From Minisyncoccota bacterium (GTDB taxonomy: Bacteria > Patescibacteriota > Minisyncoccia > Phycocordibacterales > PALSA-1337): a stretch of 28,548 nucleotides of DNA. The DNA lies in the NCBI GenBank assembly GCA_041663145.1, contig JBAZRG010000002.1, forward strand, positions 158,618 through 187,165, written 5' to 3'. The translations under genes were made by a program, and so were the position numbers. This document shows positions 999 through 27,653 of this stretch, in pieces (position 1 is the stretch's first letter; every line of letters begins with the position of its first letter). Below the pieces are notes generated by a model. That model had not been told where the DNA came from. It saw only the letters and a program-made list of their open reading frames with translations, and searched no databases.

Positions 999-3900
999 TT
1001 AGACTTCTTGTTCCATGCACCATGTTCTGGCGTTCTGAAACATATGAAGCCATGGTGAAGCCCCAAGTCTTTGCCAAGAGGCTGGCATCCATGGCCACTG
1101 CCACAAACGGAAACAACGCTCGGGATGAGGCATCATCGCTAGATGGCGACCATCAAGGGAACAGAGTGCTGTCATTCCACCCGGCGAACCGTTGGGGTTG
1201 TACGGGTATTCTTCCGTACGATTCCCATGTAGATCCAGATAAGCGAGAGGGGATAGTTTGGCCTTGATGACCTTATCTAGAATCGACTGATCTGGATAGA
1301 ATAGCCGACCTTCACCATGAGCAACCCATACGCCAAGTCTCGAACCTTCCATTCCGGAGAGAAGCACCGACGGGCTGGGCAGAATTTCCACCTGAACCCA
1401 TCGAGATTCGAATCTCTTCGAGATGTTGTGAATGAATCGTGGCTGCTTTTCACTTTCAATCATTCTCCATGGAATCCATCCGAGTAGTGCCATGAGTTGA
1501 CAGCCATTGCAGACGCCGAGCGAGAACGTATCTCGACGAGCGTAGAAACGGTCGAACATCTCTCGAAGCTTTGGGTTGAACAAGATCGCTCCTGCCCAGC
1601 CTTTGGCACTGTCGAATACATCCATATAGGAGAAACCTCCGGCGAATATGATGCCTTGGAATTGATCCAAGTTGATCCTGTCTTCGAGGAGATCACTCAT
1701 CGCAACATCCCATGGAGCAAGACCGCCGGCCAAACAAGCAGCCTGCATCTCACGATCTCCATTCGTACCTTCTTCACGGATGACTGCCACTCGTGGCTTG
1801 TCGGCCGCATTTAGGATGTCTGGGGTAGTGTTTTTGGGTTCGAATGAAAGCCTGTAACCGAGATGTCCCAGATCGTTTCGATCGGTGTGGTTGTGGCCAA
1901 AGTATTCAACCTTGGCACATTGGGGATTCATCTGAAGTTTTTCGATCTCATAGCTTGTGGATTCCCACCACGTGCGTAATTGTTCGGTTGAGGTTAAGAA
2001 TGTCTTACCTCCTCCGTGAATCGCACATGTAGTACCTGGAAGCGTGATACCGATTTCGCATATCTCAATTCCGTAGAATGAACATATTTCCCCAATCCTA
2101 CATAGAGCCTCTCTTTCGAATTCCAAGATAAGACCGAGTTCTTCGTTGAAAAGCTCTGCAAGTAGGTCTATGTCCTTTCCAAGAGCCAATCTGAATCCGC
2201 AATAGCTTGCCATGCACATCTCGGCAACTGCGGTTATGAGGCCACCGTCACTTCGGTCGTGCATAGCTAGGATGAGATCTTCACCGATCATTTGTTGGAT
2301 CGCAAGGAATGCATTCTTGAGGAGTTTCGGATCATCAACATCGGGTGTTTCGTCGCCAAGCTGATTGAAGGCTTGAGCAAGAGCTGAACCACCCAAACGA
2401 CATTTGTGGTGCAAGACACCTTGAGTGTCGAGTCTTCCGCTTAGGTCAATCAATCCAAGCATGCTCTCACCTGGCATCTTGATGTCGGGTGTAACTTTCT
2501 TAGTGATATCGGGTACGGGTGCGTAACCGAGTATGACGAGACTTCCTGGAGCCTTAACGAGTTCTCCCTGAACCGTTGCCGCCATAGAAAGGCTATCTTT
2601 GCCTCCGTCAACTGCGATACCAAGTTCGACCATTAGGTCGGACATGGCAACCGCAGCATCGTAGAGGAGAACTCCTTCATGTGGCAGTTTGGCTGGATAC
2701 ATCCAGTTGGCACGACAGCGAATGTCGTTAATGCCACTGACTTTGACACTGGCCATGTTGGTGAGCATTTCTGCTACAGCCAGACGAGCACCAGCCTTTT
2801 CGTCGATGAGCATTTTTATCGGCTGTTCGCCGACCGCACTTACCGCCCCGGTCAGACCGAAGTGGCTTTGCGCGTTAACACTGTTGTCGGCGATCGGGAT
2901 CTGGGCTATACCACAGCATTGCTGCTGTGCTACCAGTCCCGTGACGCTCCGGTCCACCTTATGAACCAGGTAACCTTTCGAACCGACCGAGGGAAGCTTG
3001 AAGACTTTTTCGATAGCTTCTCCTACGGTTATCTCTGGCAGATCCAAGGGTTTGAGCTCCTTGGTCTTCCGTGCTGATTCGAAAGTCTTCTGAGGCATGT
3101 TCGTGAGAACCTGCTCCAGATTGAGGTCAACAGGTGTGTGTCCGTTTGTGGAATCTTCAACGACAACCTTATGATTGCCGGTTATTTCTCCGAGAACTTC
3201 GCAGTTCACTCGTTCCCGCTTGCAGATCGACTGAAAGAGTCCGATCTGTTCAGGTCTGATCAGGAGGCCGTATCCTTCTTGGAATTCAGCACTCCAGATC
3301 TTGAGGACCGACATGGTCTTGTCGCCAAGCACGATCTTCCGGATATTGATAGTTCCGCCGAGCGGCTCCAGTAGTTCCGTAAGAACATTGCTCGGACCGC
3401 CGGCTCCCTGGTCGTGAATGCTCGAGATGGGATTCTTATCTCCCATTTCGATGCAGGCTCGGATAACGCGATTCGCTCGATTTTCCATCTCTGCGTTGCC
3501 ACGTTGGACGGAATTGAAATCGAGCGTATCGGTATTTTGACCCTGCATCATGCTGGAGGCGCTTCCGCCACCGACACCGATAGGGTAGGCAGGTCCGCCG
3601 ATGCGGACGATCTTCATGCCGACTTCCGGCGTCTCTTTTGCGAGATGCTGGTCAAACAAATGACCAATACCACCGCTGTAGAGAATAGGCTTGCGTGGCT
3701 CGCGCCATTCACCATCGACGATCTGACCGAAGGTTCGACAGAATCCCAGTGTGAGTGGTTCGCCGAATTGATTGCCATAACTCGATACGCCGTTGCTACC
3801 CTCGATGAGGATCGAAAGCGGCGAAGCATACTTGGAAGGCTTATCACGGCCGACTACCTCTTCCGGTATTTCATAACCCTGAATGAAGAGATTGCCGACG

Positions 3901-4856
3901 AAGTAGCCCGCGACGCCGATACCGGTCCAACCACCACGGCCGACCGCCGTGTTGTCGCGGATCCGACCTCCGGAGCCTGTTTGGGCACCGGGGAACGGGG
4001 CGACGAATGTCGGATGATTATGAGTCTCTGCGGTCGCGGTGATGTGAACCACTCTGTCGCAAATTCTCATTTCAGAAGGTTCGCCTGGCGCAAGTGGCAG
4101 GATCAGACTAGTTCTGTATCCCTGGACAGCGCCGGCATTGTCCCTGAAGGCGATGAGGCCGACTCGGTCCATCTCCTCGAGGCAAATAAGCGGATGCTGG
4201 ACGATCTCCATTAGTGTGCGTTTCATCGGCACGCCGTCGATGACGATCTGACCTTTGAAGTACCAGTGACGGCTATGCTCGCTGTTGGCGTTGCCGAGCT
4301 GAAAGAGCTCGACATCAGTCGGGTTCCTTTTGAGGATCTCCGCAAAAAGGTGATAATAATATTCGATGTCCTTAGCATCCATGCCAAGGCCTAGAGTAGA
4401 GTTCATTTCCTCGAGAGCTATTCTTCCACGACCCATGAGGTCAATGGTTCTGACTTCTTCTGGTGTCTCCCCAGTGTTAAAGGATTTGATTCCTTCTCGC
4501 AAACGTTGCTCGGTCATGCGATCAAGGTGAGCCTTGAGGATTGTATCACTTGATTGTCCGTCGCCCATCAAATAACGATGGGTACGTTCGATACGCGTGA
4601 TTTGCCGTAAATCCATTGAGTGACATATCGAGACAGCATTCGAAGAGAACGGAGTCTCGATCGAAAGCCGAGGCCCGATCTCGACAATTTCTCTTGTTCG
4701 GAAATGTGGTTCAAATCCGGTTTTATTCGGTTCGAAAGTTTCTGCGATGAGCCATTGAAGTTGACTAATATCCTGAGTCGACAGTTGGCCTGTGGTTTCA
4801 ACGTAGAAACCAAGTTCCAGGCCACTGCTGATCCGACGATATATGCTATAGATCAT
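999..4856 (-). CDS. purL: Phosphoribosylformylglycinamidine (FGAM) synthase, large single-chain type
   Basis: 1285 aa. It has the N-terminal PurL linker domain, duplicated AIR-synthase-related (PurM-like) domains and a C-terminal class I glutamine amidotransferase with the GVCNGCQLM nucleophile motif. AGGAGA SD lies upstream of the ATG at 4856. Confidence 0.95.
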   Translation of the reverse strand: MIYSIYRRISSGLELGFYVETTGQLSTQDISQLQWLIAETFEPNKTGFEPHFRTREIVEIGPRLSIETPFSSNAVSICHSMDLRQITRIERTHRYLMGDGQSSDTILKAHLDRMTEQRLREGIKSFNTGETPEEVRTIDLMGRGRIALEEMNSTLGLGMDAKDIEYYYHLFAEILKRNPTDVELFQLGNANSEHSRHWYFKGQIVIDGVPMKRTLMEIVQHPLICLEEMDRVGLIAFRDNAGAVQGYRTSLILPLAPGEPSEMRICDRVVHITATAETHNHPTFVAPFPGAQTGSGGRIRDNTAVGRGGWTGIGVAGYFVGNLFIQGYEIPEEVVGRDKPSKYASPLSILIEGSNGVSSYGNQFGEPLTLGFCRTFGQIVDGEWREPRKPILYSGGIGHLFDQHLAKETPEVGMKIVRIGGPAYPIGVGGGSASSMMQGQNTDTLDFNSVQRGNAEMENRANRVIRACIEMGDKNPISSIHDQGAGGPSNVLTELLEPLGGTINIRKIVLGDKTMSVLKIWSAEFQEGYGLLIRPEQIGLFQSICKRERVNCEVLGEITGNHKVVVEDSTNGHTPVDLNLEQVLTNMPQKTFESARKTKELKPLDLPEITVGEAIEKVFKLPSVGSKGYLVHKVDRSVTGLVAQQQCCGIAQIPIADNSVNAQSHFGLTGAVSAVGEQPIKMLIDEKAGARLAVAEMLTNMASVKVSGINDIRCRANWMYPAKLPHEGVLLYDAAVAMSDLMVELGIAVDGGKDSLSMAATVQGELVKAPGSLVILGYAPVPDITKKVTPDIKMPGESMLGLIDLSGRLDTQGVLHHKCRLGGSALAQAFNQLGDETPDVDDPKLLKNAFLAIQQMIGEDLILAMHDRSDGGLITAVAEMCMASYCGFRLALGKDIDLLAELFNEELGLILEFEREALCRIGEICSFYGIEICEIGITLPGTTCAIHGGGKTFLTSTEQLRTWWESTSYEIEKLQMNPQCAKVEYFGHNHTDRNDLGHLGYRLSFEPKNTTPDILNAADKPRVAVIREEGTNGDREMQAACLAGGLAPWDVAMSDLLEDRINLDQFQGIIFAGGFSYMDVFDSAKGWAGAILFNPKLREMFDRFYARRDTFSLGVCNGCQLMALLGWIPWRMIESEKQPRFIHNISKRFESRWVQVEILPSPSVLLSGMEGSRLGVWVAHGEGRLFYPDQSILDKVIKAKLSPLAYLDLHGNRTEEYPYNPNGSPGGMTALCSLDGRHLAMMPHPERCFRLWQWPWMPASWQRLGASPWLHMFQNARTWCMEQEV

Positions 4857-5719: not shown

Positions 5720-6181
5720 ATGAGAACCATCAACAGAGAGATCGTATCGGCACACGTTTACTCAAGCGACGGTAAATTACTCATGGCAAGAAACAACAAT
5801 CCTGTCTCCGGTGTAGTGTATGGCGATTGTTGGAAGATACCTGGTGGTGGAGTGGAACAGGGAGAGACACAATTACAGACTCTTATTCGAGAGGTAAAAG
5901 AGGAGGTGGGTATCGATATAGCCAAATTTCCAGCTGAATTGGTGGGCGGCATCATGACAGGTGAATCGGAGAAAACACTTCGTGAAACCGGAGAGCGAGT
6001 ACTGGCTAAGATGAGATTCTTTACTTACAAAGTAATTTTAGACAAACCCGTCGCGCAAGTATCGGTGACTCTAGAGCTACATGAATTCAATGAATATAAA
6101 TGGGTCGATCTGTCAGAGTTGAAAACACTTAAACTTAGCCCGCCATCTATTGAGTTGTTTACTAAATTGGGTTTTATATAA
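5720..6181 (+). CDS. Nudix hydrolase
   Basis: Nudix box GGGVEQGETQLQTLIREVKEEVGI (Gx5Ex7REUxEExGU). Confidence 0.8.
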   Translation: MRTINREIVSAHVYSSDGKLLMARNNNPVSGVVYGDCWKIPGGGVEQGETQLQTLIREVKEEVGIDIAKFPAELVGGIMTGESEKTLRETGERVLAKMRFFTYKVILDKPVAQVSVTLELHEFNEYKWVDLSELKTLKLSPPSIELFTKLGFI

Positions 6182-17433: not shown

Positions 17434-17539
17434 AATGGGTATAGTATAACTCCGACTTTATTATCACGCATCCCCAGATTTGCAAGACGCAACCGCACAC
17501 ATCATTGAGATACACTCCGAATGGATGTATAATAAACTC

Positions 17540-17644
17540 ATGGCAAAGAGAATCAACATGCGCTTGAAGACTTCTCGTTCGAGAAAAACCGCCAAGAGGC
17601 GATCTGTTAAGAACGCAAGACTTCATAAGACGAAGAAGAAATAA
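17540..17644 (+). CDS. Possible 34-aa highly basic peptide
   Basis: MAKRINMRLKTSRSRKTAKRRSVKNARLHKTKKK is Lys/Arg-rich like a small ribosomal or nucleic-acid-binding peptide. It lies antisense to a low-quality Cys-rich track ORF (17417-17626). I found no confident homology. Confidence 0.2.
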   Translation: MAKRINMRLKTSRSRKTAKRRSVKNARLHKTKKK

Positions 17645-17899
17645 TAAGTCGATTTTCGAATTATTATCAGAAATGCAATCAGTAAACTCTGATTGTTCTC
17701 TTATGCTTTCTTTTTTATTTCTATACCAAGCTCGATCAACTGACTAGGTTCGACAAGTGATATTTTTGGTGGTTTTAGTTTCTCTTAAATATATTAAACG
17801 CAGAGATTCCACTTATCATCTGTTTTCAATCTCCACTGACTAGGGTTGTTACGAGGTAGTCTATTAATAAGCTAACATAGGTGTATATATTTTAATCAA

Positions 17900-18095
17900 T
17901 ATGTGTTATATTTCTGGCATACCTATGATCCGGCAGACACCGGTGAGGTGAAGAAAGAAAGCCATCCTTTGATTGGTTAGTAGAATCTTCCGGTAGTGCT
18001 CCGATATGCAGAAATGAAGAAAAAAACAGGGTGGCACCGCGACAAAATCGCCCCTGCGGATTTATTAAAATTAATGAATTCGGAGGGGTGTTTTT
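17900..18095 (+). promoter_or_regulatory. T-box riboswitch leader with intrinsic terminator upstream of the AspRS paralog
   Basis: Canonical T-box sequence AACAGGGTGGCACCGCG (18026-18041; consensus AGGGTGGNACCGCG, with the bulge UGGC matching tRNA 3' GCCA and discriminator G as in tRNA-Asp/Asn). It is immediately followed by the terminator CCCCTGCGGA(18051-18060)...TTCGGAGGGG(18079-18088)+TGTTTTT. The ATG is at 18139. Stem I and the specifier were not resolved by eye, so the 5' boundary is approximate. Confidence 0.7.
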
Positions 18096-18138
18096 ATTTA
18101 CAGCAAGTAGGTGGGACATTTCTTCGAACACAAGTACC

Positions 18139-19467
18139 ATGCAAAGAACATATATAAGAGATCTAAAAGAGTTTATAGGTAAAGAAATTAGCATTTCAGG
18201 ATATGTCGATGTACGTCGCAATCAAGGTAAGATGGTGTTTTTCGAATTTCGCGATCGGACGGGCAAGATACAGGGGGTGGTACTTCCTAATAATTCAGAA
18301 GCTCTTGAATCTTCCAAAGAAATACGTTCGGAATGGGTTGTAGAAATAATTGGCATCGTAAATAAACGTCCGCAAAAGAACATTCAAGCCGGAAAGATGA
18401 ACGGGGATATCGAACTTGAGATTAAACATATTAATGTCCTTGGAATAGCCAAAGAACTTCCGTTTGAAAAAGATTCTGAGATTAACATCGATACGTATCT
18501 CGATTACCTTCCACTCACTCTTCGAAGTCAAACACACACGACCGTCTTCAAAGTTCAGGCAGTTATTGCTAAGGCCTTCAGAGACTTCTTTACAAAAGAG
18601 GGTTTTACGGAATTTCAAGCACCGAAATTAATTGGTGATGATGCCGAAGGTGGGGCGAACTCTTTTGATGTTACATATTTCAAACATATCGCACATTTGG
18701 CTCAAAGTCCCCAGTTATATAAACAGATCATGGTCGGCGTATTTGAACGTGTTTTTTCTGTCGGAAACGTATATCGTGCGGAGAAGCATAGTACAACGCG
18801 TCATCTCAATGAATATACCAGTCTAGACATGGAAATGGGCTATATTAAAGATCATTATGATGTCATGAATTCTGAAAATCAATTTTTGCAATATCTTGAA
18901 AATGTTCTTCGTGCCTCTTGTGTTGATGATTTTGCCTTGCTCGGTGCCACTATACCAACGGTCCCGAAAGAAATTCCAAAATTGACCTTACGCGAAGCTC
19001 AAACACTTATCACAACAGATACCGGTAAAGATTGTACAAATGATCCGGATCTTGAGCCTGAACATGAAAGATGGCTTTGTAAGTATGCCGAGAAGAATTT
19101 TAATTCCGACTTTATTTTCGTCACTAATTTTCCGACAGCTAAGCGACCGTTCTATACTTATAGAGATGAAAAAGATCCAACATATACTAAAGGTTTTGAC
19201 CTGCTCTTTCGTGGTGTAGAAATCACTACTGGTGCGCAACGCATCCATAACTACGACGACCTTGTTAGTTCCATGAAAGAGAAGAAGCTTGATCCTGAAA
19301 AGTTCAAATATTATCTTCAAGCTTTCAAATATGGCATGCCTCCACACGGAGGTCTAGGACTTGGGTTGGAGCGCATCACGGCAAAGCTTCTTGGTCTAGA
19401 AAATATCAAGGAAGCCACTCTTTTCCCGAGAGATATTAACAGGATCGATAACCTATTGTCAGAATAG
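18139..19467 (+). CDS. Class IIb aspartyl-tRNA synthetase paralog (archaeal/eukaryotic type), AT-rich copy
   Basis: Start moved to 18139 (MQRTYIRDL...) downstream of the T-box terminator. N-terminal OB anticodon-binding domain; flipping-loop motif LAQSPQLYKQ (AspRS-type QSPQ); motif 2 YRAEKHSTTRHLNEYTSLDME; motif 3 GGLGLGLERITAKLLGLENIKEATLFPRD. GC is far lower than the second copy at 23312. Confidence 0.8.
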   Translation: MQRTYIRDLKEFIGKEISISGYVDVRRNQGKMVFFEFRDRTGKIQGVVLPNNSEALESSKEIRSEWVVEIIGIVNKRPQKNIQAGKMNGDIELEIKHINVLGIAKELPFEKDSEINIDTYLDYLPLTLRSQTHTTVFKVQAVIAKAFRDFFTKEGFTEFQAPKLIGDDAEGGANSFDVTYFKHIAHLAQSPQLYKQIMVGVFERVFSVGNVYRAEKHSTTRHLNEYTSLDMEMGYIKDHYDVMNSENQFLQYLENVLRASCVDDFALLGATIPTVPKEIPKLTLREAQTLITTDTGKDCTNDPDLEPEHERWLCKYAEKNFNSDFIFVTNFPTAKRPFYTYRDEKDPTYTKGFDLLFRGVEITTGAQRIHNYDDLVSSMKEKKLDPEKFKYYLQAFKYGMPPHGGLGLGLERITAKLLGLENIKEATLFPRDINRIDNLLSE

Positions 19468-19503: not shown

Positions 19504-20241
19504 ATGTATAAACAAGGAATAGAGGTAAAAAGAGAAACAAATTTTGGGATTATTCTTGAGAAGTCCTCATGGTTTTCAATTGTCGAATCTCTTTTCCCGA
19601 AAAGTGAGCGAATCTATTATCCAAATGATCAGGATGAGGTGTTACATATAATCGTGGATGATATTGACATCGCTTTTATCTCTGGTCAAGGTTCAAGCAT
19701 GGTCGCGTGCATGACTGAAAGATTAAGAGTATATGGATCAAAGGCAATAATTAGAATTGGGACATGTGGAGCATTATCGCAAGAAATAAAACTATGGTGT
19801 CCAATTATTACGACAGCATGTTTTAGTAGCGAAGGTACCTCAAAGCATTACTTACCGTGCGGCTATCCTATTATATCTGACTTTAATCTGAATACCCTCC
19901 TCATTAAAAAATTAATTAAAGGAGGTGTTGATTACCAACAAGGTATTACATTAACAACAGATGGTAGATGGCGAGAAGATCCGGTATTGCTCAAACAATT
20001 ATGTCAGCTGGGGGTTATTTCTATTGAAATGGAAACGGCGGCAATTTTATCAGTTTGTCAGTTTAGAAAATTACCTGCAGCTGCAATAAATATTCCAACT
20101 GATTTACCAGCAGACGAGGAAAGTGAAGAAGATTTTAAGGGCATACCAAATCGAGAAACTTATGAATCAGATTTGAGAAAATGTTTAATGAAAATCATTC
20201 CTTTTGCAGTGGAGACCTTAAAAGATTTATATCATAAATAA
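19504..20241 (+). CDS. PNP_UDP_1 family protein, MTA/SAH-nucleosidase-like (Mtn-like)
   Basis: IIRIGTCGALSQ corresponds to the substrate-binding GSAGG loop (NTGSAGG) of MtnN. LTTDGRW carries the catalytic Asp. ISIEMETAAILSVCQ matches the VEMEATAIAHVC motif. It sits 36 nt after the AspRS paralog stop. Confidence 0.6.
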   Translation: MYKQGIEVKRETNFGIILEKSSWFSIVESLFPKSERIYYPNDQDEVLHIIVDDIDIAFISGQGSSMVACMTERLRVYGSKAIIRIGTCGALSQEIKLWCPIITTACFSSEGTSKHYLPCGYPIISDFNLNTLLIKKLIKGGVDYQQGITLTTDGRWREDPVLLKQLCQLGVISIEMETAAILSVCQFRKLPAAAINIPTDLPADEESEEDFKGIPNRETYESDLRKCLMKIIPFAVETLKDLYHK

Positions 20242-20250
20242 ATCAAACAA

Positions 20251-20877
20251 ATGACAATCTGGGCAAACATGATCTATGGTGAAGATGTTAAATTTACTAC
20301 ACCGTTACCAGATAAAGGTTTCCTGACATCCTTTTCAAAAGACATAAGTATTCTTGATGTTGGTTGTGGATATGGAAGAGTTCTAAGTTATTTACAGAGT
20401 TTGGGTTTTACAAATTTGACAGGTTTCGATATATCCTCAAATTACGTATTAGAGGCCAAGAAAAATTGCCAAGATGCAAACCTCTTTGTTTCTGATTTCA
20501 AAAGTTTAAATCTGAATAAGAAATATGATCTAATCTTACTGATGGGGGTTATTGAATATATTCTCACTGATAAAGATCAGGACGCTTTTTTTAGGAAGCT
20601 TTCTGGAGAGCTCTCTACCAATGGATCTGTTTTGCTGGAAACTTTTATTATTGATTTCAAACCAAATTGGAAACAATATATTTTAGGATTTATAAAAACA
20701 TTGCATTTTGGACGGTTTAGAAACAGTAAAGGTTTTGAGTGTCACCATCAGTCGATAAATGGTTTAAGGGTGATATTACAAAAATACTTCATTATTAATT
20801 CAGAGACAGAAAAATGTTATGTAACATGGACCAATAATTATTGCCGTGGGTATAATATTAATTTGAAGAAAAAATAA
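20251..20877 (+). CDS. Small class I SAM-dependent methyltransferase-fold protein
   Basis: Motif I ILDVGCGYGRVLSYL and an acidic post-I residue (GFDIS). 208 aa. The gap to the upstream gene is 9 nt. Confidence 0.7.
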   Translation: MTIWANMIYGEDVKFTTPLPDKGFLTSFSKDISILDVGCGYGRVLSYLQSLGFTNLTGFDISSNYVLEAKKNCQDANLFVSDFKSLNLNKKYDLILLMGVIEYILTDKDQDAFFRKLSGELSTNGSVLLETFIIDFKPNWKQYILGFIKTLHFGRFRNSKGFECHHQSINGLRVILQKYFIINSETEKCYVTWTNNYCRGYNINLKKK

Positions 20878-20881
20878 TTAT

Positions 20882-22960
20882 ATGGAATCAGATTTAGATA
20901 ATTTAATTAAAACTGTTTCAATACAGGAGGAGCGGAAAAGCAGGTGTATAAACCTTATTGCATCAGAAAACATAATCAGTGATAGGGTTAGCCAATTGCA
21001 GGCATCGTTGCTTTCTAATCGGTATATTCTCAATGATTTTCCAAACAATAAAGAACTTTTTGAAATTAAGGAAAAACTGAAATATCATCTTTGCAAAATG
21101 TTTAATGTTAAATATGTCAACATATCGCCGCTTTCGGGTATGAGTTGTATGAGTTTGATTATCAGCAGTCTAACAAACAAAAATGATAACATCTACACGT
21201 TGAAACCTCTTGATGGAGGCCACGCGTCGACCGAAAAAATATGTCACATGTATCATTTGAATATTAACTATTTACCATTTAGTAATATCGATTATCGATT
21301 CAATTTAGAAGAAATAAAGAAAATATTCGAGATAAGAAAACCACGTCTAATATATTTGGATAATACGATCATCAGTTTTTATTCTCCAGTTGATGAGTTG
21401 AAGAAACTTGCAGAAAAATATTATGCTCCGATTGTATATGATGGTTCGCATGTCTTGGGTTTAATCGCTGGTAAGTCGTTTCCGAATCCAATAGAAAACG
21501 GAGCAGATATTTTGAGTGGCAGTACTCATAAAACATTCTTTGGTTCCCAAAAAGGAATCATCTTGACTAATAACCAGGATCTAATAAATAAAATTAATTC
21601 TATATCAAATGATTATATATCTAGTCTTCACACAGGAAGTCTTTTGGCTTTGTATATGAGTGTATTAGAAATGGAAAAATTTGGGAATGAATATGCCATG
21701 CAAGTTGTAAAAAATGCCAAGGCATTGGGGAAAAATCTGGCTATAAATGGGGTTGCAATTCCCACTCTTGAAAAGGGTGTGACTGAAACGCATCAAGTTT
21801 GGATAGACACAGGTAAAGTTGACCCACAAAGAGCATTTGAAATGCTTGCTGAATGTAATATCAATACAAACCCTATTCGGATACCTGCGATACAAAAAGT
21901 TGGACTAAGATTGGGAACTGCGGAAGTGACGAGATTGGGAATGAAAGAAGATGAAATGAAACAGATAGCGAAATTTATTTCTGAAGTATTGATTGGTTCT
22001 AAAGAAAAGAACCTCGTTAAGGAAGATGTAATCAAGTTTAGTGGTAAATATCAAAAAACACTTTTCACTCTAGACAATTATAATAGCAATGTTGATCTTC
22101 CTCTTATGATAAAAGAAAACGAAGTTATTTTAGACCAAAGATTTGAAACACATGATGTAATAAATAATACAACAGTTGTGGGATATGGGGATATTGTGGG
22201 CAAATATGTCAAAGACTTTTTTAGTATAATTCCTGGTTTTCAGGGACTTATTATTCGGGGTGGTGTTGGTAGGGGTACTGCTGATGACTTGTCAGATATT
22301 GATTTCACATGTGTATTTGATTGTGATGATATTGAGAAAATCAAAAAACAATATGGACTTAAAACCGGCATGTATAAATATAATGGAATTATGTTTTCAG
22401 GCCGATATATATCTCTGAATTCGTTTAGAGACAGCTTATGGTCACCTAAAATGAAACATGCTTATTCATATGTGAAGTTGATACATTGTGCCAAAACAAT
22501 TAGTGACATAATAAAAAAGAAAACAAAGATTTCGATTTCAGAACAAAAAAGGAGGTTAGTAGAGAATGTTATTGAGTTGGGAGAAATCTGTAAGGTTTTT
22601 AATGAGTATCACGGTTTTAAAATGTTTTCAGAAATCTATAAACAATATTCAAGAAAAGAATTTTTGGTGGCAAATTTAGAAATTGATAGAGCAGTAAGAT
22701 ATATAAAAAATATAATTTTCGATCTTAACAAAATTAACTATCCTGAGGAAAAAAGTTATTATACTAAGTTCTTTTCCGGTTTACCTAAGCAACCTGACGG
22801 ATTTGATCATCAGATTAAAACCATATTACAAATGCCTCGGGATGATAGAAGTTTTGGAAAACGACTAACACTTCTTGTAATATTAGCCAGAGAGGTTTTG
22901 GGTTATTGTGAAAAATATGTATCTTTACCAAAGGACATATATAAGTTTTACCTGAACTAG
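20882..22960 (+). CDS. Fusion protein: N-terminal SHMT-like fold-type I PLP enzyme plus C-terminal Pol-beta-superfamily nucleotidyltransferase with a helical domain
   Basis: N-terminal half: LIASENIIS (SHMT LIASENFTS), LDGGHAST (SHMT GGHLTHG), YDGSHVLGL (PLP-Asp region DMAHxxGL) and SGSTHKTFFGSQKGIIL (SHMT TTTTHKTLRGPRGG, the PLP lysine). C-terminal half: RGGVGRGTADDLSDIDFTCVF fits the minimal NTase hG[GS]x(9-13)Dh[DE]h motif, followed by a helical substrate-binding-like domain as in ANT/LinB-type nucleotidyltransferases. The gap to the MTase gene is 4 nt. Confidence 0.6.
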   Translation: MESDLDNLIKTVSIQEERKSRCINLIASENIISDRVSQLQASLLSNRYILNDFPNNKELFEIKEKLKYHLCKMFNVKYVNISPLSGMSCMSLIISSLTNKNDNIYTLKPLDGGHASTEKICHMYHLNINYLPFSNIDYRFNLEEIKKIFEIRKPRLIYLDNTIISFYSPVDELKKLAEKYYAPIVYDGSHVLGLIAGKSFPNPIENGADILSGSTHKTFFGSQKGIILTNNQDLINKINSISNDYISSLHTGSLLALYMSVLEMEKFGNEYAMQVVKNAKALGKNLAINGVAIPTLEKGVTETHQVWIDTGKVDPQRAFEMLAECNINTNPIRIPAIQKVGLRLGTAEVTRLGMKEDEMKQIAKFISEVLIGSKEKNLVKEDVIKFSGKYQKTLFTLDNYNSNVDLPLMIKENEVILDQRFETHDVINNTTVVGYGDIVGKYVKDFFSIIPGFQGLIIRGGVGRGTADDLSDIDFTCVFDCDDIEKIKKQYGLKTGMYKYNGIMFSGRYISLNSFRDSLWSPKMKHAYSYVKLIHCAKTISDIIKKKTKISISEQKRRLVENVIELGEICKVFNEYHGFKMFSEIYKQYSRKEFLVANLEIDRAVRYIKNIIFDLNKINYPEEKSYYTKFFSGLPKQPDGFDHQIKTILQMPRDDRSFGKRLTLLVILAREVLGYCEKYVSLPKDIYKFYLN

Positions 22961-23197
22961 TTGAGACTGATGGGATATTCACGGCTTTATCGGTAGCATT
23001 ATTATAAAGAAAGCCATTCGTGGCAACTAGGATATTTAATTACAAGATGACTGATCTATTTCAGTTTATTCAAGATATGGATATCAGAAAAGATAGCTAT
23101 TTTTTCATTGTATGTGGTGAAGTGTCTCCGAGCTATCGAACTCAAGCGGCTTCAAAAGCTGACTAACCTCACATACATATTGCACTCATTAAAAAGC

Positions 23198-23311: not shown

Positions 23312-24616
23312 ATGAATCGCACATTGACTCAATACATACCGGCTTTAATCGGCCAACAAGTAAAAGTTGCGGGCTTTTCACAAGTTATTCGCGACCAAAA
23401 GAAAATGCAGTTTGTGATCCTTAGAGATCAGACGGGGCAGGTTCAGATCTGTCATGAAAAAGGTGGTGACGAGGATGAGTTGAAAAAGACCATCTCTTCA
23501 CTCACCGCTGAATCAGCGGTCACTGTTATCGGTCGCGTGGTCGAAAACAAGGGCGTGAAGCTTGGTGGAGTCGAGATTGTGGCGGAGTCGATTGATGTCT
23601 CAAGCATCGCCATTGTGCCATTACCGATTACGCCGGAATCATCGCTCGATCTGCAGATGGACTGGCGGATGCTTAGCCTGAGACAGCCAGAAAATCTCCT
23701 GATCTTCCAGGTCCAGACGACCATGGAGCAGGCGATGAGGGAGTTCTGGGCTGACAACGGATTCATCGAGGTACATTCGCCGAAGCTTATGGCAACGGCG
23801 AGCGAATCGGGTGCCGAGCTGTTTCAGCTTGAGTACTTCGGACAGAAAGCGACTCTGGCTCAATCGCCACAGTTTTATAAGCAAATGGCGATGGCGGCAG
23901 GGTTTGATCGGATCTTCGAGATCGCGCCTGTATTCCGTGCTAATCCGTCGTTCACATCACGACATGACACCGAGTTTACCTCGGTTGACATGGAGATATC
24001 GTGGGTTGATTCCCATGAAGATCTGATGCATATCGAGGAAACTTGGTTGCATCATGTGGTCAAACGAGTGTCGGAGAAACACGGTAAAGCCATCAAGGAC
24101 ACCTTCGGAGCTGATGTGGTGATTCCTCAGCTTCCATTTCCGAGGGTTACCTTGGCAAATGCGCGAGAGATTCTCGCAAAGCAGGGTCATACCATGGAGC
24201 AAATCACCGACCTCGATCCGCCCGGCGAAAGAGGTTTGGCGGAACACATCAAGAAGGAATTTGGTCACGAGTTTGTTTTCGTGATCGACTACCCGATTGA
24301 TGTGCGGCCGTTCTACCACATGCGTCATGTCGGCAATCCCGGCATCACCAAGAGCTTCGACCTTTTATGGAAGGGGCTTGAAGTGACGACGGGTGCACAG
24401 CGTGAACATCGTGTCGAGACGCTCGAACAGCAGGCACGGGAAAAGGGCTTGGCTCTTGCTCCTCTTGCACACTATATCAACTTCTTTCGTTACGGCTGTC
24501 CACCGCACGGAGGATTTGGCGTGGGACTTACGAGGCTTCTCATGGTTCTCCTTGATCGTAAGAACGTCAGGGAAGTGACCTACCTCTATCGCGGGCCTAA
24601 TCGCCTGACACCGTAA
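23312..24616 (+). CDS. aspS: Aspartyl-tRNA synthetase, archaeal/eukaryotic type (class IIb)
   Basis: OB-fold N-terminus; QSPQFYKQ flipping loop; motif 2 FRANPSFTSRHDTEFTSVDMEI; motif 3 GGFGVGLTRLLMVLLDRKNVREVTYLYRGPNRLTP (compare archaeal AspRS ...FPRDRRRLTP). GC is typical of the surrounding genome. Confidence 0.85.
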   Translation: MNRTLTQYIPALIGQQVKVAGFSQVIRDQKKMQFVILRDQTGQVQICHEKGGDEDELKKTISSLTAESAVTVIGRVVENKGVKLGGVEIVAESIDVSSIAIVPLPITPESSLDLQMDWRMLSLRQPENLLIFQVQTTMEQAMREFWADNGFIEVHSPKLMATASESGAELFQLEYFGQKATLAQSPQFYKQMAMAAGFDRIFEIAPVFRANPSFTSRHDTEFTSVDMEISWVDSHEDLMHIEETWLHHVVKRVSEKHGKAIKDTFGADVVIPQLPFPRVTLANAREILAKQGHTMEQITDLDPPGERGLAEHIKKEFGHEFVFVIDYPIDVRPFYHMRHVGNPGITKSFDLLWKGLEVTTGAQREHRVETLEQQAREKGLALAPLAHYINFFRYGCPPHGGFGVGLTRLLMVLLDRKNVREVTYLYRGPNRLTP

Positions 24617-24639
24617 TTGTTCTTTGGTTAGTTAACACA

Positions 24640-24670
24640 CAGCTAGGATGAAAGTCCTGGCTGTTTTTTT
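24640..24670 (+). terminator. Rho-independent terminator after aspS
   Basis: Stem CAGCTAGG(24640-24647)/CCTGGCTG(24656-24663), 8 bp including one G-U pair, loop ATGAAAGT, then TTTTTTT. Confidence 0.5.
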
Positions 24671-26610: not shown

Positions 26611-27366
26611 ATGTCCGAATACTATAATTCACGTCGAAGCCGTAATCTATTTGATCCTACGAGCACGGAACCTTTCAGGGTCAGTCGGTCGAAGATCGAT
26701 CTCTATTTGAATTGTCCGCTTTGTTTCTATCTCGATTGCAAGTTGGGCGTGGGCAGACCGCCCGGATTTCCATTTGCACTGAACTCGGCCGTAGACGCTC
26801 TTCTCAAAAAAGAATTTGACATTCATCGAGCAAAAAAGAGGCCTCATCCACTCATGCATGCTTACGGATTGAAAGATATTATTCCATTCAGTCATGAGGA
26901 TCTAGATATATGGAGGAGCAATTTTAAGGGTATAAGATACATCCATTCCCCGACAAATCTTTTGGTCACTGGAGCTATCGATGACGTTTGGACTGATTCG
27001 GATGGGGAACTGATAATTGTTGACTACAAATCAACTAGTAAAGAAGAAAAAGTTTCGCTTGATAAAGAGTGGCAGATCGGATACAAGCGTCAAATGGAGA
27101 TATATCAATGGCTTTTCCGACAAAATGGATTCAAGGTTTCAAAAACAGGATATTTTGTCTATTGCAATGGTAAGACAGACAGGGAAGCATTCGACGCCAA
27201 ACTCGATTTTGATATAGATCTTATCCCTTATGTTGGCGATGATTCATGGATCGAAGGCGCTCTCAAGGAATTGAAAGAGTGTCTGTTACTACCAAAACCA
27301 CCTAAACCTGCCGAGACTTGTGATTACTGTTCTTACAGAAAAGCTTCGAGGGATGTTCAGAGATGA
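26611..27366 (+). CDS. PD-(D/E)XK nuclease with cysteine cluster (Cas4-like/RecB-family exonuclease fold)
   Basis: N-terminal CPLCFYLDC plus C-terminal CDYCSY form a 4-Cys Fe-S-type arrangement as in Cas4/AddB. The nuclease core is GAIDDV ... LIIVDYKST ... YKRQMEIYQ (D...ExK, QxxxY). No CRISPR array or other cas genes are nearby. Confidence 0.6.
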   Translation: MSEYYNSRRSRNLFDPTSTEPFRVSRSKIDLYLNCPLCFYLDCKLGVGRPPGFPFALNSAVDALLKKEFDIHRAKKRPHPLMHAYGLKDIIPFSHEDLDIWRSNFKGIRYIHSPTNLLVTGAIDDVWTDSDGELIIVDYKSTSKEEKVSLDKEWQIGYKRQMEIYQWLFRQNGFKVSKTGYFVYCNGKTDREAFDAKLDFDIDLIPYVGDDSWIEGALKELKECLLLPKPPKPAETCDYCSYRKASRDVQR

Positions 27367-27368
27367 TT

Positions 27369-27537
27369 CGTAACCCCCACAACACCCTCATTTGTTTTCC
27401 TCGAACTCTGCTCACAATATACCAACATTTTCACAAAGGATGCGCTACAAGGATTCGCGCATCCTTTGGAAAATGTGTTGGTATATTATTTCGCAGATTA
27501 TTCTCGGAATACAAATGAGGGTGTTGTGGGGGTTACG
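27369..27537 (+). repeat. Long rod-like hairpin element D, about 169 nt
   Basis: Terminal arms CGTAACCCCCACAACACCCTCATTTGT / ACAAATGAGGGTGTTGTGGGGGTTACG are perfect reverse complements (27 bp). There is an inner near-perfect hairpin AATATACCAACA..AAAGGATGCGC-loop-GCGCATCCTTT..TGTTGGTATATT. It begins 3 nt after the stop of the Cas4-like gene. Confidence 0.55.
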
Positions 27538-27653
27538 AAGACTAGTAATGACATCATGGAATGCATAGTGTAAGATATTTCTGTATCCGAGTACTTTAAA
27601 AAGTTTTTCACTCACCCACAAAGAGAGTATTCGATATAGAAAGATGTACCAAT

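Follow-up and report, generated by a model that had tools for sequence, protein, structure and literature searches.

A non-canonical T-box leader, putatively responsive to tRNA-Asp, precedes an archaeal-type aspartyl-tRNA synthetase gene in Patescibacteria

The DNA analysed in this study, referred to as the window, is a stretch of 28,548 nucleotides (nt) from a Minisyncoccota bacterium (contig JBAZRG010000002.1, positions 158,618 to 187,165), and the element in question is an RNA leader at window positions 17918-18099 (+), situated 5' of the gene aspS (18139-19467, +). The product of aspS, AspRS1 (MFA6315303.1), is an aspartyl-tRNA synthetase (AspRS) of 442 amino acids (aa), an archaeal-type non-discriminating aspartate-tRNA(Asn) ligase with the Pfam domain tRNA-synt_2 and an OB-fold anticodon-binding domain, and it reached 502.9 bits with the model NF003483 (cut-off 353). 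Its orthologs, which form the single non-discriminating AspRS in most Paceibacterota, are found throughout that group with 70-78% identity, the usual gene order there being trpS, aspS, scpA, scpB, ftsW, murG, with no leader. Among the loci used for comparison (designated by L and a number), L064 has a 77%-identical ortholog in the same neighbourhood as the window (SDR ... DHH, peptidyl-prolyl isomerase) and no leader, and in L032, where the neighbourhood is again the same, the ortholog is 84% identical and an intact T-box is present. Since both loci share the neighbourhood of the window, AspRS1 can be regarded as resident at its locus.

In the initial annotation, which was made from the letters of the window alone, the regulated gene had been taken for an AspRS paralog lying in an AT-rich, apparently foreign block. 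Neither point could be maintained: AspRS1 is the resident ortholog, the GC content of the leader and aspS (~38-40%) is near the window mean of 41.8%, and the low-GC block (31-34%) starts at 19.5 kb. The divergent copy is a second archaeal-type synthetase, AspRS2 (434 aa, 23312-24616, +; 471.4 bits with NF003483), which is 36% identical to AspRS1 and has relatives of 62-78% identity in other Patescibacteria. AspRS2 possesses its own Shine-Dalgarno sequence AAGGAGGUG and a downstream terminator (24639-24664), and no T-box was found 5' of it in searches with RF00230, the T-box model of Rfam, and with our own covariance models.

The T-box sequence of the leader, AGGGTGGCACCGCG (18028-18041, +), matches the 14-nt consensus AGGGUGGNACCGCG, as quoted in PMC11297988, at 14 of 14 positions; it occurs a single time in the window at up to one mismatch, and none of 100 dinucleotide-preserving shuffles holds a match. 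A scan of the whole window with RF00230 at its gathering score, 93 bits, returned no match. With permissive filters the same model was aligned end to end (model positions 1-219) to 17916-18058 with 42.1 bits, at an E-value of 6.8e-8 in a local search and of 6.3e-6 in a search of 64.5 kb, and homologous leaders at other loci obtained 38.7 (L001), 35.7 (L032) and 41.1 bits (L069), the E-values of the window and its relatives ranging from 6.8e-8 to 2.8e-4. As a T-box match the leader is therefore far better than chance, yet non-canonical. The available gene calls treat this region differently: the NCBI call for aspS has 442 aa, and the JGI call (P0380) has 478 aa, with a GTG start at 18031 inside the T-box, and since the latter runs through the terminator, it hides the leader from intergenic scans. 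The GTG-extended open reading frame (ORF) was rejected as coding, because AspRS homology begins at the ATG at 18139, and a minus-strand ORF at 17892-18221 was likewise rejected as a real coding sequence.

Protein-guided retrieval gave eight distinct leaders, that of the window included, of which seven are intact and one, in L002, is decayed. Close relatives with the leader are L001 (identical in L030 and L033) and L029; L032, already mentioned for its AspRS 84% identical to AspRS1, also carries it, as do L070 and L071 (AspRS 71% identical; 123.8 and 122.8 bits with our covariance model R2) and L069, whose AspRS is only 42% identical and whose leader scores 85 bits with our covariance model R1. 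The same leader design thus stands 5' of AspRS genes in four lineages (the window group, L032, L070/L071 and L069), and all the intact leaders are located directly 5' of genes which score above the NCBIfam AspRS cut-off. The hexaloop NNGACA, the bulge UGGCACC, a G-C basal pair of helix A2 and the lack of a Stem III are common to the seven intact leaders, and each of them has, overlapping with its antiterminator, a terminator predicted at -30 to -34 kcal/mol with a U-tract behind it.

Reading from the sequence, a putative extended -10 promoter, TG-T-TATATT (TGTTATATT), is located at 17904-17912 (+), from which transcription would probably begin near 17916-17919, where Stem I has its base. Every lineage has a -10-like hexamer, 5-8 nt before the leader's first conserved base, the promoters of the relatives being TTGCAT-18-TATATT in L001, TATAGT in L032, TTGCAC-17-TAGAGT in L070 and TTGACT-18-TATCAT in L069; the best candidate of an automated prediction in the window lies farther upstream (TTAATA-16-TATATT, 17864-17891).

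Stem I (17921-17949, +) is ultrashort, and RF00230 aligns its kink-turn (K-turn) and helix and deletes the distal 72 positions of the model. It is built of a C-stem ACC/GGU (17921-23 with 17947-49), a K-turn with the bulge UAU (17924-26) and sheared G.A/A.G pairs from GA at 17927-28 and GA at 17945-46, a 4-bp helix CCGG/CCGG (17930-33 with 17940-43) and an apical hexaloop CAGACA (17934-39), in which the Specifier GAC (17936-38) is followed by a purine, A 17939. The K-turn ACC-UAU-GA...GA-GGU is therefore present, and the specifier GAC-A agrees with the AspRS gene downstream. The first two bases of the hexaloop differ among the intact leaders (CA, CU, UU), and in L069 both the helix (GCCG/CGGC) and the C-stem (GGC/GCC) are changed on both sides. 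Other readings of the loop were considered and rejected, CAG and AGA because they are not conserved and ACA because no unpaired purine comes next. The hairpin CCGG-CAGACA-CCGG with its GAC-A had been noticed in the initial annotation, where it was put at 17931-17944 and could not be placed in a specifier loop; the hairpin is real, its actual position is 17930-17943, its GAC is the likely specifier, and it is Stem I itself. No internal specifier loop could be found, because Stem I has the ultrashort apical-loop form known from Class III T-boxes. The distal platform of Stem I (an AG bulge and a distal loop, which docks the tRNA elbow) is absent, as the hexaloop follows after 4 bp.

Stem II (17950-17990, +), in which RF00230 aligns the AGUA S-turn motif, has a proximal helix GAAGA/UCUUC (17950-54 with 17986-90), an S-turn internal loop of AAGAAA (17955-60) and UAGUAGAA (17978-85), and a distal hairpin (17961-77). 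Across the lineages five of five distal and three of five proximal pairs are changed on both sides, with the variants UAUAGGG/CCUUAUA in L032, GCCCC/GGGGU in L070, and CGGGG/CCCUG and UCCU/AGGA in L069. The Stem IIA/B pseudoknot (17991-18010, +), likewise placed by the RF00230 alignment, pairs CGG with CCG in IIA (17991-93 with 18001-03) and UGC (17997-99) with GCA (18008-10) in IIB. IIA reads CAG/CUG in L070, and IIB, tabulated per sequence, occurs as UGC/GCA, CUGC/GCAG, CUGUU/AGCAG, GUUC/GAAU and CCGC/GCGG, and is broken in the decayed copy of L002. An F-box-like element (CCGAUA in the window, CCGUUA in L069) and the S-turn strand AGUAG, aligned by Rfam, are also present. In the usual place of Stem III there is a purine-rich single-stranded linker, GAAAUGAAGAAAAAAAC (18011-18027, +), in which no hairpin is possible; all Stem III positions are deleted by RF00230, yet the flanking purines, which have the pattern 5'-RRRxG and AA-3' in canonical leaders, are aligned as AAGAA and AAAC. 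The IIA hairpin was tried as a Stem III and rejected, as it is 25 nt from helix A1 and carries the F-box and the co-varying pseudoknot.

The T-box sequence and antiterminator (18028-18055, +) comprise helix A1 (AGGG/CCCU), the bulge UGGCACC (18032-38), helix A2 (GCGA/UCGC) and the loop CAAAA. The intact leaders all have this bulge unchanged, in L002 it reads UAGAACC, and A1 has become AAGG/CCUU in L069 by changes on both sides. An intrinsic terminator, made of a hairpin (18049-18090, +) and the U-tract TTTTTATTT/UUUUUAUUU (18091-18099, +), overlaps the antiterminator: the 3' halves of A2 and A1 (18049-18055) serve also in the 5' arm of the hairpin, and the two folds are mutually exclusive. The predicted energy in the window is -30.2 kcal/mol for the terminator versus -6.2 kcal/mol for the antiterminator, and the terminators of the relatives have -32.2 (L032), -30.3 (L070) and -34.3 kcal/mol (L069), as opposed to -8.7 kcal/mol in L002. 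A pattern scan had missed the terminator, because a G.G mismatch interrupts the hairpin. At least five U follow the hairpin directly in four of four lineages, and the aspS start codon lies 40 nt beyond the U-tract in the window, 22 nt in L069 and 50 nt in L070. The T-box motif, GC-rich terminator and U-tract which the initial annotation had read as diagnostic were all recovered at these positions, and its remark that the UGGC bulge suits a tRNA with discriminator G (G73) also stood. Between the terminator and the start codon a conserved 10-mer, UUUCUUCGAA (18119-18128, +), is the same in the window, L001, L029 and L032, despite the diverged flanks in L032, and it is mutated in L002; at its position L070 has a pyrimidine tract only. 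This 10-mer is complementary to GAAGAAA of the Stem II 5' strand. No Shine-Dalgarno sequence was found near the aspS ATG (18139).

The proposed structure was evaluated on the eight distinct leaders. In their alignment, A6, 97.3% of the cells pair and 15 of 28 pairs are changed on both sides, numbers which have to be read with the reservation that A6 was fitted to the model structure and that most of the both-side changes come from two divergent lineages. None of 500 shuffles reached the observed values, and controls in which the structure was slid along the alignment gave 35-50% pairing and 2-5 both-side pairs. Co-variation was seen in every helix but the 3-bp core of A2. An alignment of five leaders made by MAFFT alone already gave 92% pairing, with three compensatory pairs.

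Comparison of the leaders with their own genes indicates how strongly they are kept. Window and L032 agree at 42% of the four-fold synonymous sites in aspS, a value near saturation, versus 72% identity in the leader. No base differs in Stem I, in the proximal part of Stem II and in the T-box/antiterminator strands, and most differences lie in the distal part of Stem II, around IIA/IIB, in the linker and in the loop of A2. For L002 the relation to the window is the opposite, the synonymous sites being 79% and the leader 74% identical. The L002 copy (5778-5970; identical in L031) has GAA for GAC and UAGA for UGGC, lacks also the pseudoknot and the terminator 3' arm, and is not detected by Rfam, while the adjoining aspS is intact. 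To judge from its sequence, it is a natural decayed copy that drifts at approximately the synonymous rate, and the L002 operon is presumably expressed constitutively. Since the leader is kept where the synonymous sites are saturated and decays in L002, the intact copies are under purifying selection. The suggestion that a T-box stands on an AspRS gene is consequently well founded in the RF00230 match, the covariation, the purifying selection and the recurrence of one design in four lineages.

The distribution of the leader is restricted. When R1 and R2 were run over 384 kb and 582 kb, respectively, of Candidate Phyla Radiation (CPR) DNA, no copy was found 5' of other genes or of AspRS2. Ten AspRS orthologs of 46-60% identity (L003-L007, L034, L036, L047, L054 and L056), examined by Rfam for L003-L007 and by motif and eye for all ten, yielded no leader, and these ten aspS genes directly abut another gene. 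No T-box was found in L060-L066 (orthologs 77-78% identical) either. As a separate observation, in L060, L062 and L066 the 240-nt gap between trpS and aspS is filled by a conserved 45-aa ORF (MDNEQYSYVLGALARIDRKVDFLLEMSQEKKPLRDIDEFEEEFDM in L060), at 4848-4985 in L060 and L062 and at 3848-3985 in L066. In a quick neighbour-joining tree the T-box-bearing aspS genes are not monophyletic, and the patchy distribution would have arisen either by repeated loss or by transfer of the leader. L069, the contig of the most divergent T-box copy, also holds a LOOT RNA (RF03000, 3615-3730, 60 bits versus a gathering score of 46.4), which adjoins transposase genes.

Downstream of aspS three genes recognized by Pfam and NCBIfam follow on the plus strand: a phosphorylase of the purine nucleoside/uridine phosphorylase (PNP/UDP) family (19504-20241), an S-adenosylmethionine (SAM)-dependent methyltransferase (20251-20877), and a fusion protein (20882-22960) of a serine hydroxymethyltransferase (SHMT)-like pyridoxal phosphate enzyme with a C-terminal domain of ~300 aa, which is weakly nucleotidyltransferase-like and for which only ~28 full-length relatives exist. 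The gaps from aspS through the phosphorylase and the methyltransferase to the SHMT-like gene are 36, 9 and 4 nt, and the GC content of the trio is 31-34%. In a plus-strand scan no intergenic terminator-like site was found from aspS until 24639, the sole other plus-strand site being a weak one at 22230-22246 inside the SHMT-like ORF. Since there is no intergenic terminator between aspS and the trio, the T-box probably controls the trio too, i.e. the four genes are probably co-transcribed. A remnant of a type-I phosphoribosyltransferase (PRTase) gene, 49 codons at 22960-23106 (+), lies in the 350-nt gap before AspRS2 and corresponds, with 69% identity, to residues 60-108 of the 192-aa gene that is intact in L001. 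A 192-aa ORF after aspS in L032 was considered as the counterpart of the L001 gene and rejected, as it is unrelated and its equal length is coincidental. In L070 and L071 the PRTase gene is kept, and the second AspRS is reduced to an 88-aa C-terminal fragment.

The trio adjoins archaeal-type AspRS genes in five of six contexts examined, often together with a PRTase gene, and in three of the contexts a T-box is present. Several of the contexts have two AspRS copies, and genes for restriction-modification, recombinases or transposases are found near some of them. In L032 the T-box occurs and the cassette does not, the reverse holds for L067/L068 and L073-L075, and in L072, which also has no T-box, the trio is found among radical-SAM genes without an AspRS. 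Import of the regulatory element together with the gene set, as supposed in the initial annotation, is accordingly supported in part: T-box and cassette occur together in three lineages, but each of them occurs also alone. The cassette may make or consume a metabolite tied to Asp-tRNA or Asp-AMP, or it may represent an AspRS inhibitor with an immunity AspRS pair. If it is tied to Asp-tRNA or Asp-AMP, or to AspRS inhibition, the T-box would buffer the charging of tRNA-Asp. In either event the recurrent link of AspRS genes to a small enzyme cassette in minimal-genome bacteria deserves attention.

Some further features were recorded in the window. A very basic 34-aa ORF (MAKRINMRLKTSRSRKTAKRRSVKNARLHKTKKK, 17540-17644), without a Pfam match, lies between a promoter close to consensus, TTGAGA-17-TATAAT (17505-17533), and a terminator-like hairpin (17675-17696), and might encode a peptide resembling a ribosomal protein. 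Directly after a PD-(D/E)XK/Cas4-like gene (26611-27366) there is a near-perfect hairpin or inverted repeat of ~175 nt (27366-27540), which gave a spurious Rfam microRNA match (MIR7723, 47.7 bits, E = 2e-6). The single-chain formylglycinamide ribonucleotide (FGAR) amidotransferase PurL of 1285 aa (999-4856, -) has 47-54% GC versus ~42% in the window, and, being of atypical composition in a CPR genome, it may have been acquired horizontally.

Taken together, the leader is likely to be a tRNA-Asp-responsive T-box that controls read-through into aspS and probably into the genes which follow it. The binding of tRNA, the discrimination of its charged and uncharged forms and the antitermination would proceed as in the homologous T-boxes already characterised. 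In general tRNA-Asp has the anticodon GUC and the discriminator base G73. In the mechanism that we propose, the nascent leader would fold into the K-turn, the 4-bp Stem I with its GAC-A hexaloop, Stem II with its S-turn, and the pseudoknot IIA/B. The GUC anticodon would pair with GAC, clamped, as in the Class III T-boxes of Actinobacteria, in a groove between Stem I and Stem II, without any contact to the elbow. If the tRNA is uncharged, its free G73-C-C-A end could pair with UGGC and stabilise the weak antiterminator (~-6 kcal/mol), which would permit read-through; if the tRNA is charged or absent, the terminator would capture the 3' halves of A1 and A2, and transcription would stop at the U-tract. 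GAC is the specifier in 94% of the Asp T-boxes in the database TBDB (PMC7778990), and in Class III leaders the corresponding module binds tRNA tightly without elbow contact, Stem II being required (PMC10482949).

It should be emphasized that, beside the dependence of A6 on the model structure, several points weigh against such a function. The score of 42.1 bits is below the RF00230 gathering score of 93. The IIB helix of the window has just 3 bp versus 4-5 bp in the relatives. Stem III is absent in the window, L032, L070 and L069 (L069 could have a GC/GC remnant of no more than 2 bp), and all eight leaders, the seven intact ones and that of L002, have G-C as the basal pair of A2 versus G-U in the consensus (CGCCCC versus CGUCCC). 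According to published work Stem III is an integral part of T-boxes, indispensable for the binding of the tRNA 3' end, the basal G-U wobble of A2 is the primary steric sensor of the aminoacyl group, and transcriptional T-boxes generally need a long Stem I with an elbow platform (PMC7583486). Furthermore, no tRNA-Asp gene was found in the window and 41 loci, in which the only tRNA gene was one for tRNA-Lys, so that GUC and G73 are taken from tRNA-Asp in general.

Part of these objections can be answered. The shortfall of the RF00230 score has two sources, the replacement of the distal Stem I (those 72 model positions) by 2 nt and the lack of a Stem III. The initial annotation had named this model as the check and a score under the gathering threshold as the refutation of the T-box; the check gave a significant full-length match and, at 42 bits, indeed a score below that threshold, but since RF00230 models leaders with a long Stem I and a Stem III, such a score is not a valid refuter here. 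With regard to the missing Stem III and G-U wobble, the retained purines that flank the place of Stem III may suffice for the sensing of aminoacylation.

The lack of Stem III and of the G-U pair is also the ground for an alternative in which the leader binds tRNA-Asp but reads its charging poorly or not at all, and senses the abundance or occupancy of the tRNA or needs another factor. Stem III and the G-U pair are described as a two-component sieve against aminoacyl-tRNA, and the antiterminator alone is said to bind tRNA poorly (PMC7583486); both parts of the sieve are missing in seven of seven intact leaders. We nevertheless regard this alternative as improbable, since the leaders keep, in conserved form, the purines that flank a canonical Stem III (positions GAAG and AAAC), since under strong selection neither the UGGC bulge nor the geometry of the helices has varied, and since a charge-blind switch would provide little useful feedback for a synthetase gene. 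Still less credible is that the leader is the relic of a T-box, which would work constitutively as a terminator or attenuator with partial leakage, or would have no regulatory role: the low Rfam score, the missing canonical parts and the decay in the close relative L002 would fit with it, but the functional motifs are invariant at 42% synonymous identity, the helices have been kept by changes on both sides, and real decay has the appearance of L002, with neutral drift and the joint loss of specifier, UGG, pseudoknot and terminator. Finally, control of translation initiation by sequestration of the ribosome-binding site instead of transcription termination, which might be thought of because the decoding module belongs to a class that mostly regulates translation (PMC10482949) and because the terminator 3' arm holds a GGAGG (18082-18086), is hardly tenable in view of the U-tract directly after the hairpin in every lineage and the start codon lying 22-50 nt past it, no start codon being found at a suitable spacing from GGAGG.

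If charge-dependent antitermination by the leader is true, the elbow platform, Stem III and the G-U wobble would all be dispensable for co-transcriptional sensing of tRNA charge, and aminoacylation would be read in a somewhat different way. T-boxes are a model for the recognition of a structured RNA by another RNA and for the reading of its chemical state, and a family which is under selection without the long Stem I, held in current structural accounts to be needed by transcriptional T-boxes for a quick capture of the tRNA elbow, and without Stem III and the G-U pair, yet has a strong terminator, would be a minimal system in which the required contacts could be defined. The sensor has ~140 nt, or ~180 nt with the terminator. 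Annotation at the Rfam gathering threshold and gene calls that run through the leader miss such elements. The short-Stem-I model of TBDB was applied only to Actinobacteria and to matches of the Rfam model, and with this scope leaders like that of aspS would be missed. A search of a limited body of literature for T-boxes of CPR bacteria or leaders without Stem III found no report, which is no proof of novelty.

Compared with the Class I T-boxes of the Bacillus subtilis tyrS type, the leader shares the 14-nt T-box, the antiterminator and terminator with a common strand, the K-turn, the S-turn, the F-box, the IIA/B pseudoknot and, by analogy, an aminoacyl-tRNA synthetase gene under the control of the cognate tRNA. 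In contrast, Class I leaders have a long Stem I, with an internal specifier loop, an AG bulge and a distal platform, and a Stem III, neither of which is present here. In Firmicutes, Asp/Asn T-boxes (aspS, hisS-aspS, non-discriminating AspRS with gatCAB) are known with the canonical long Stem I; the amino-acid logic and the GAC specifier are what the leader has in common with Firmicutes Asp T-boxes.

The likeness to Class III, represented in the published accounts used here by leaders of actinobacterial ileS genes, is closer, as far as the description of that class goes. Ultrashort Stem I T-boxes of ileS were reportedly described by Sherwood et al. in 2015 in Nocardia farcinica and Mycobacterium tuberculosis. 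The class is defined by a short Stem I without a platform, by a Specifier situated in an apical loop of five or six nucleotides, and by the presence of Stem II (PMC10482949), and the leader presents these decoding features in its CAGACA hexaloop on a 4-bp helix, Stem II and IIA/B. Common to both are thus the short Stem I without the double T-loop elbow platform, the Specifier and its 3' purine in an apical loop of 5-6 nt above the K-turn, a Stem II with S-turn, the IIA/B pseudoknot and the T-box bulge UGGN. The two differ in amino acid and gene (Ile and ileS versus Asp, by GAC, and aspS), in their hosts (Actinobacteria versus Patescibacteria) and in the expression platform, which in Class III is mostly a Shine-Dalgarno sequestrator, although this is not strictly defining, and here is an intrinsic terminator with a U-tract. 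Furthermore, the M. tuberculosis ileS leader has a Stem III (PMC11297988), whereas the leader described here has none, and its A2 basal pair is G-C.

In summary, four canonical features fail in the leader, namely the distal Stem I platform, Stem III, the G-U wobble and the Rfam gathering threshold, and the core features are present: the T-box sequence, the bulged antiterminator with an alternative terminator, the K-turn, a matching specifier, the S-turn and the pseudoknot. That it stands for an undescribed T-box class native to Patescibacteria/CPR, travelling with a mobile AspRS-linked cassette and defined by the Class III clamp, the Stem III-less discriminator with its G-C pair and the terminator, is a real possibility which we put forward tentatively. 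On the evidence of its sequence, we consider the leader a genuine tRNA-Asp T-box of Patescibacteria, in which a Class III decoder is joined to a discriminator without Stem III and to an intrinsic terminator.

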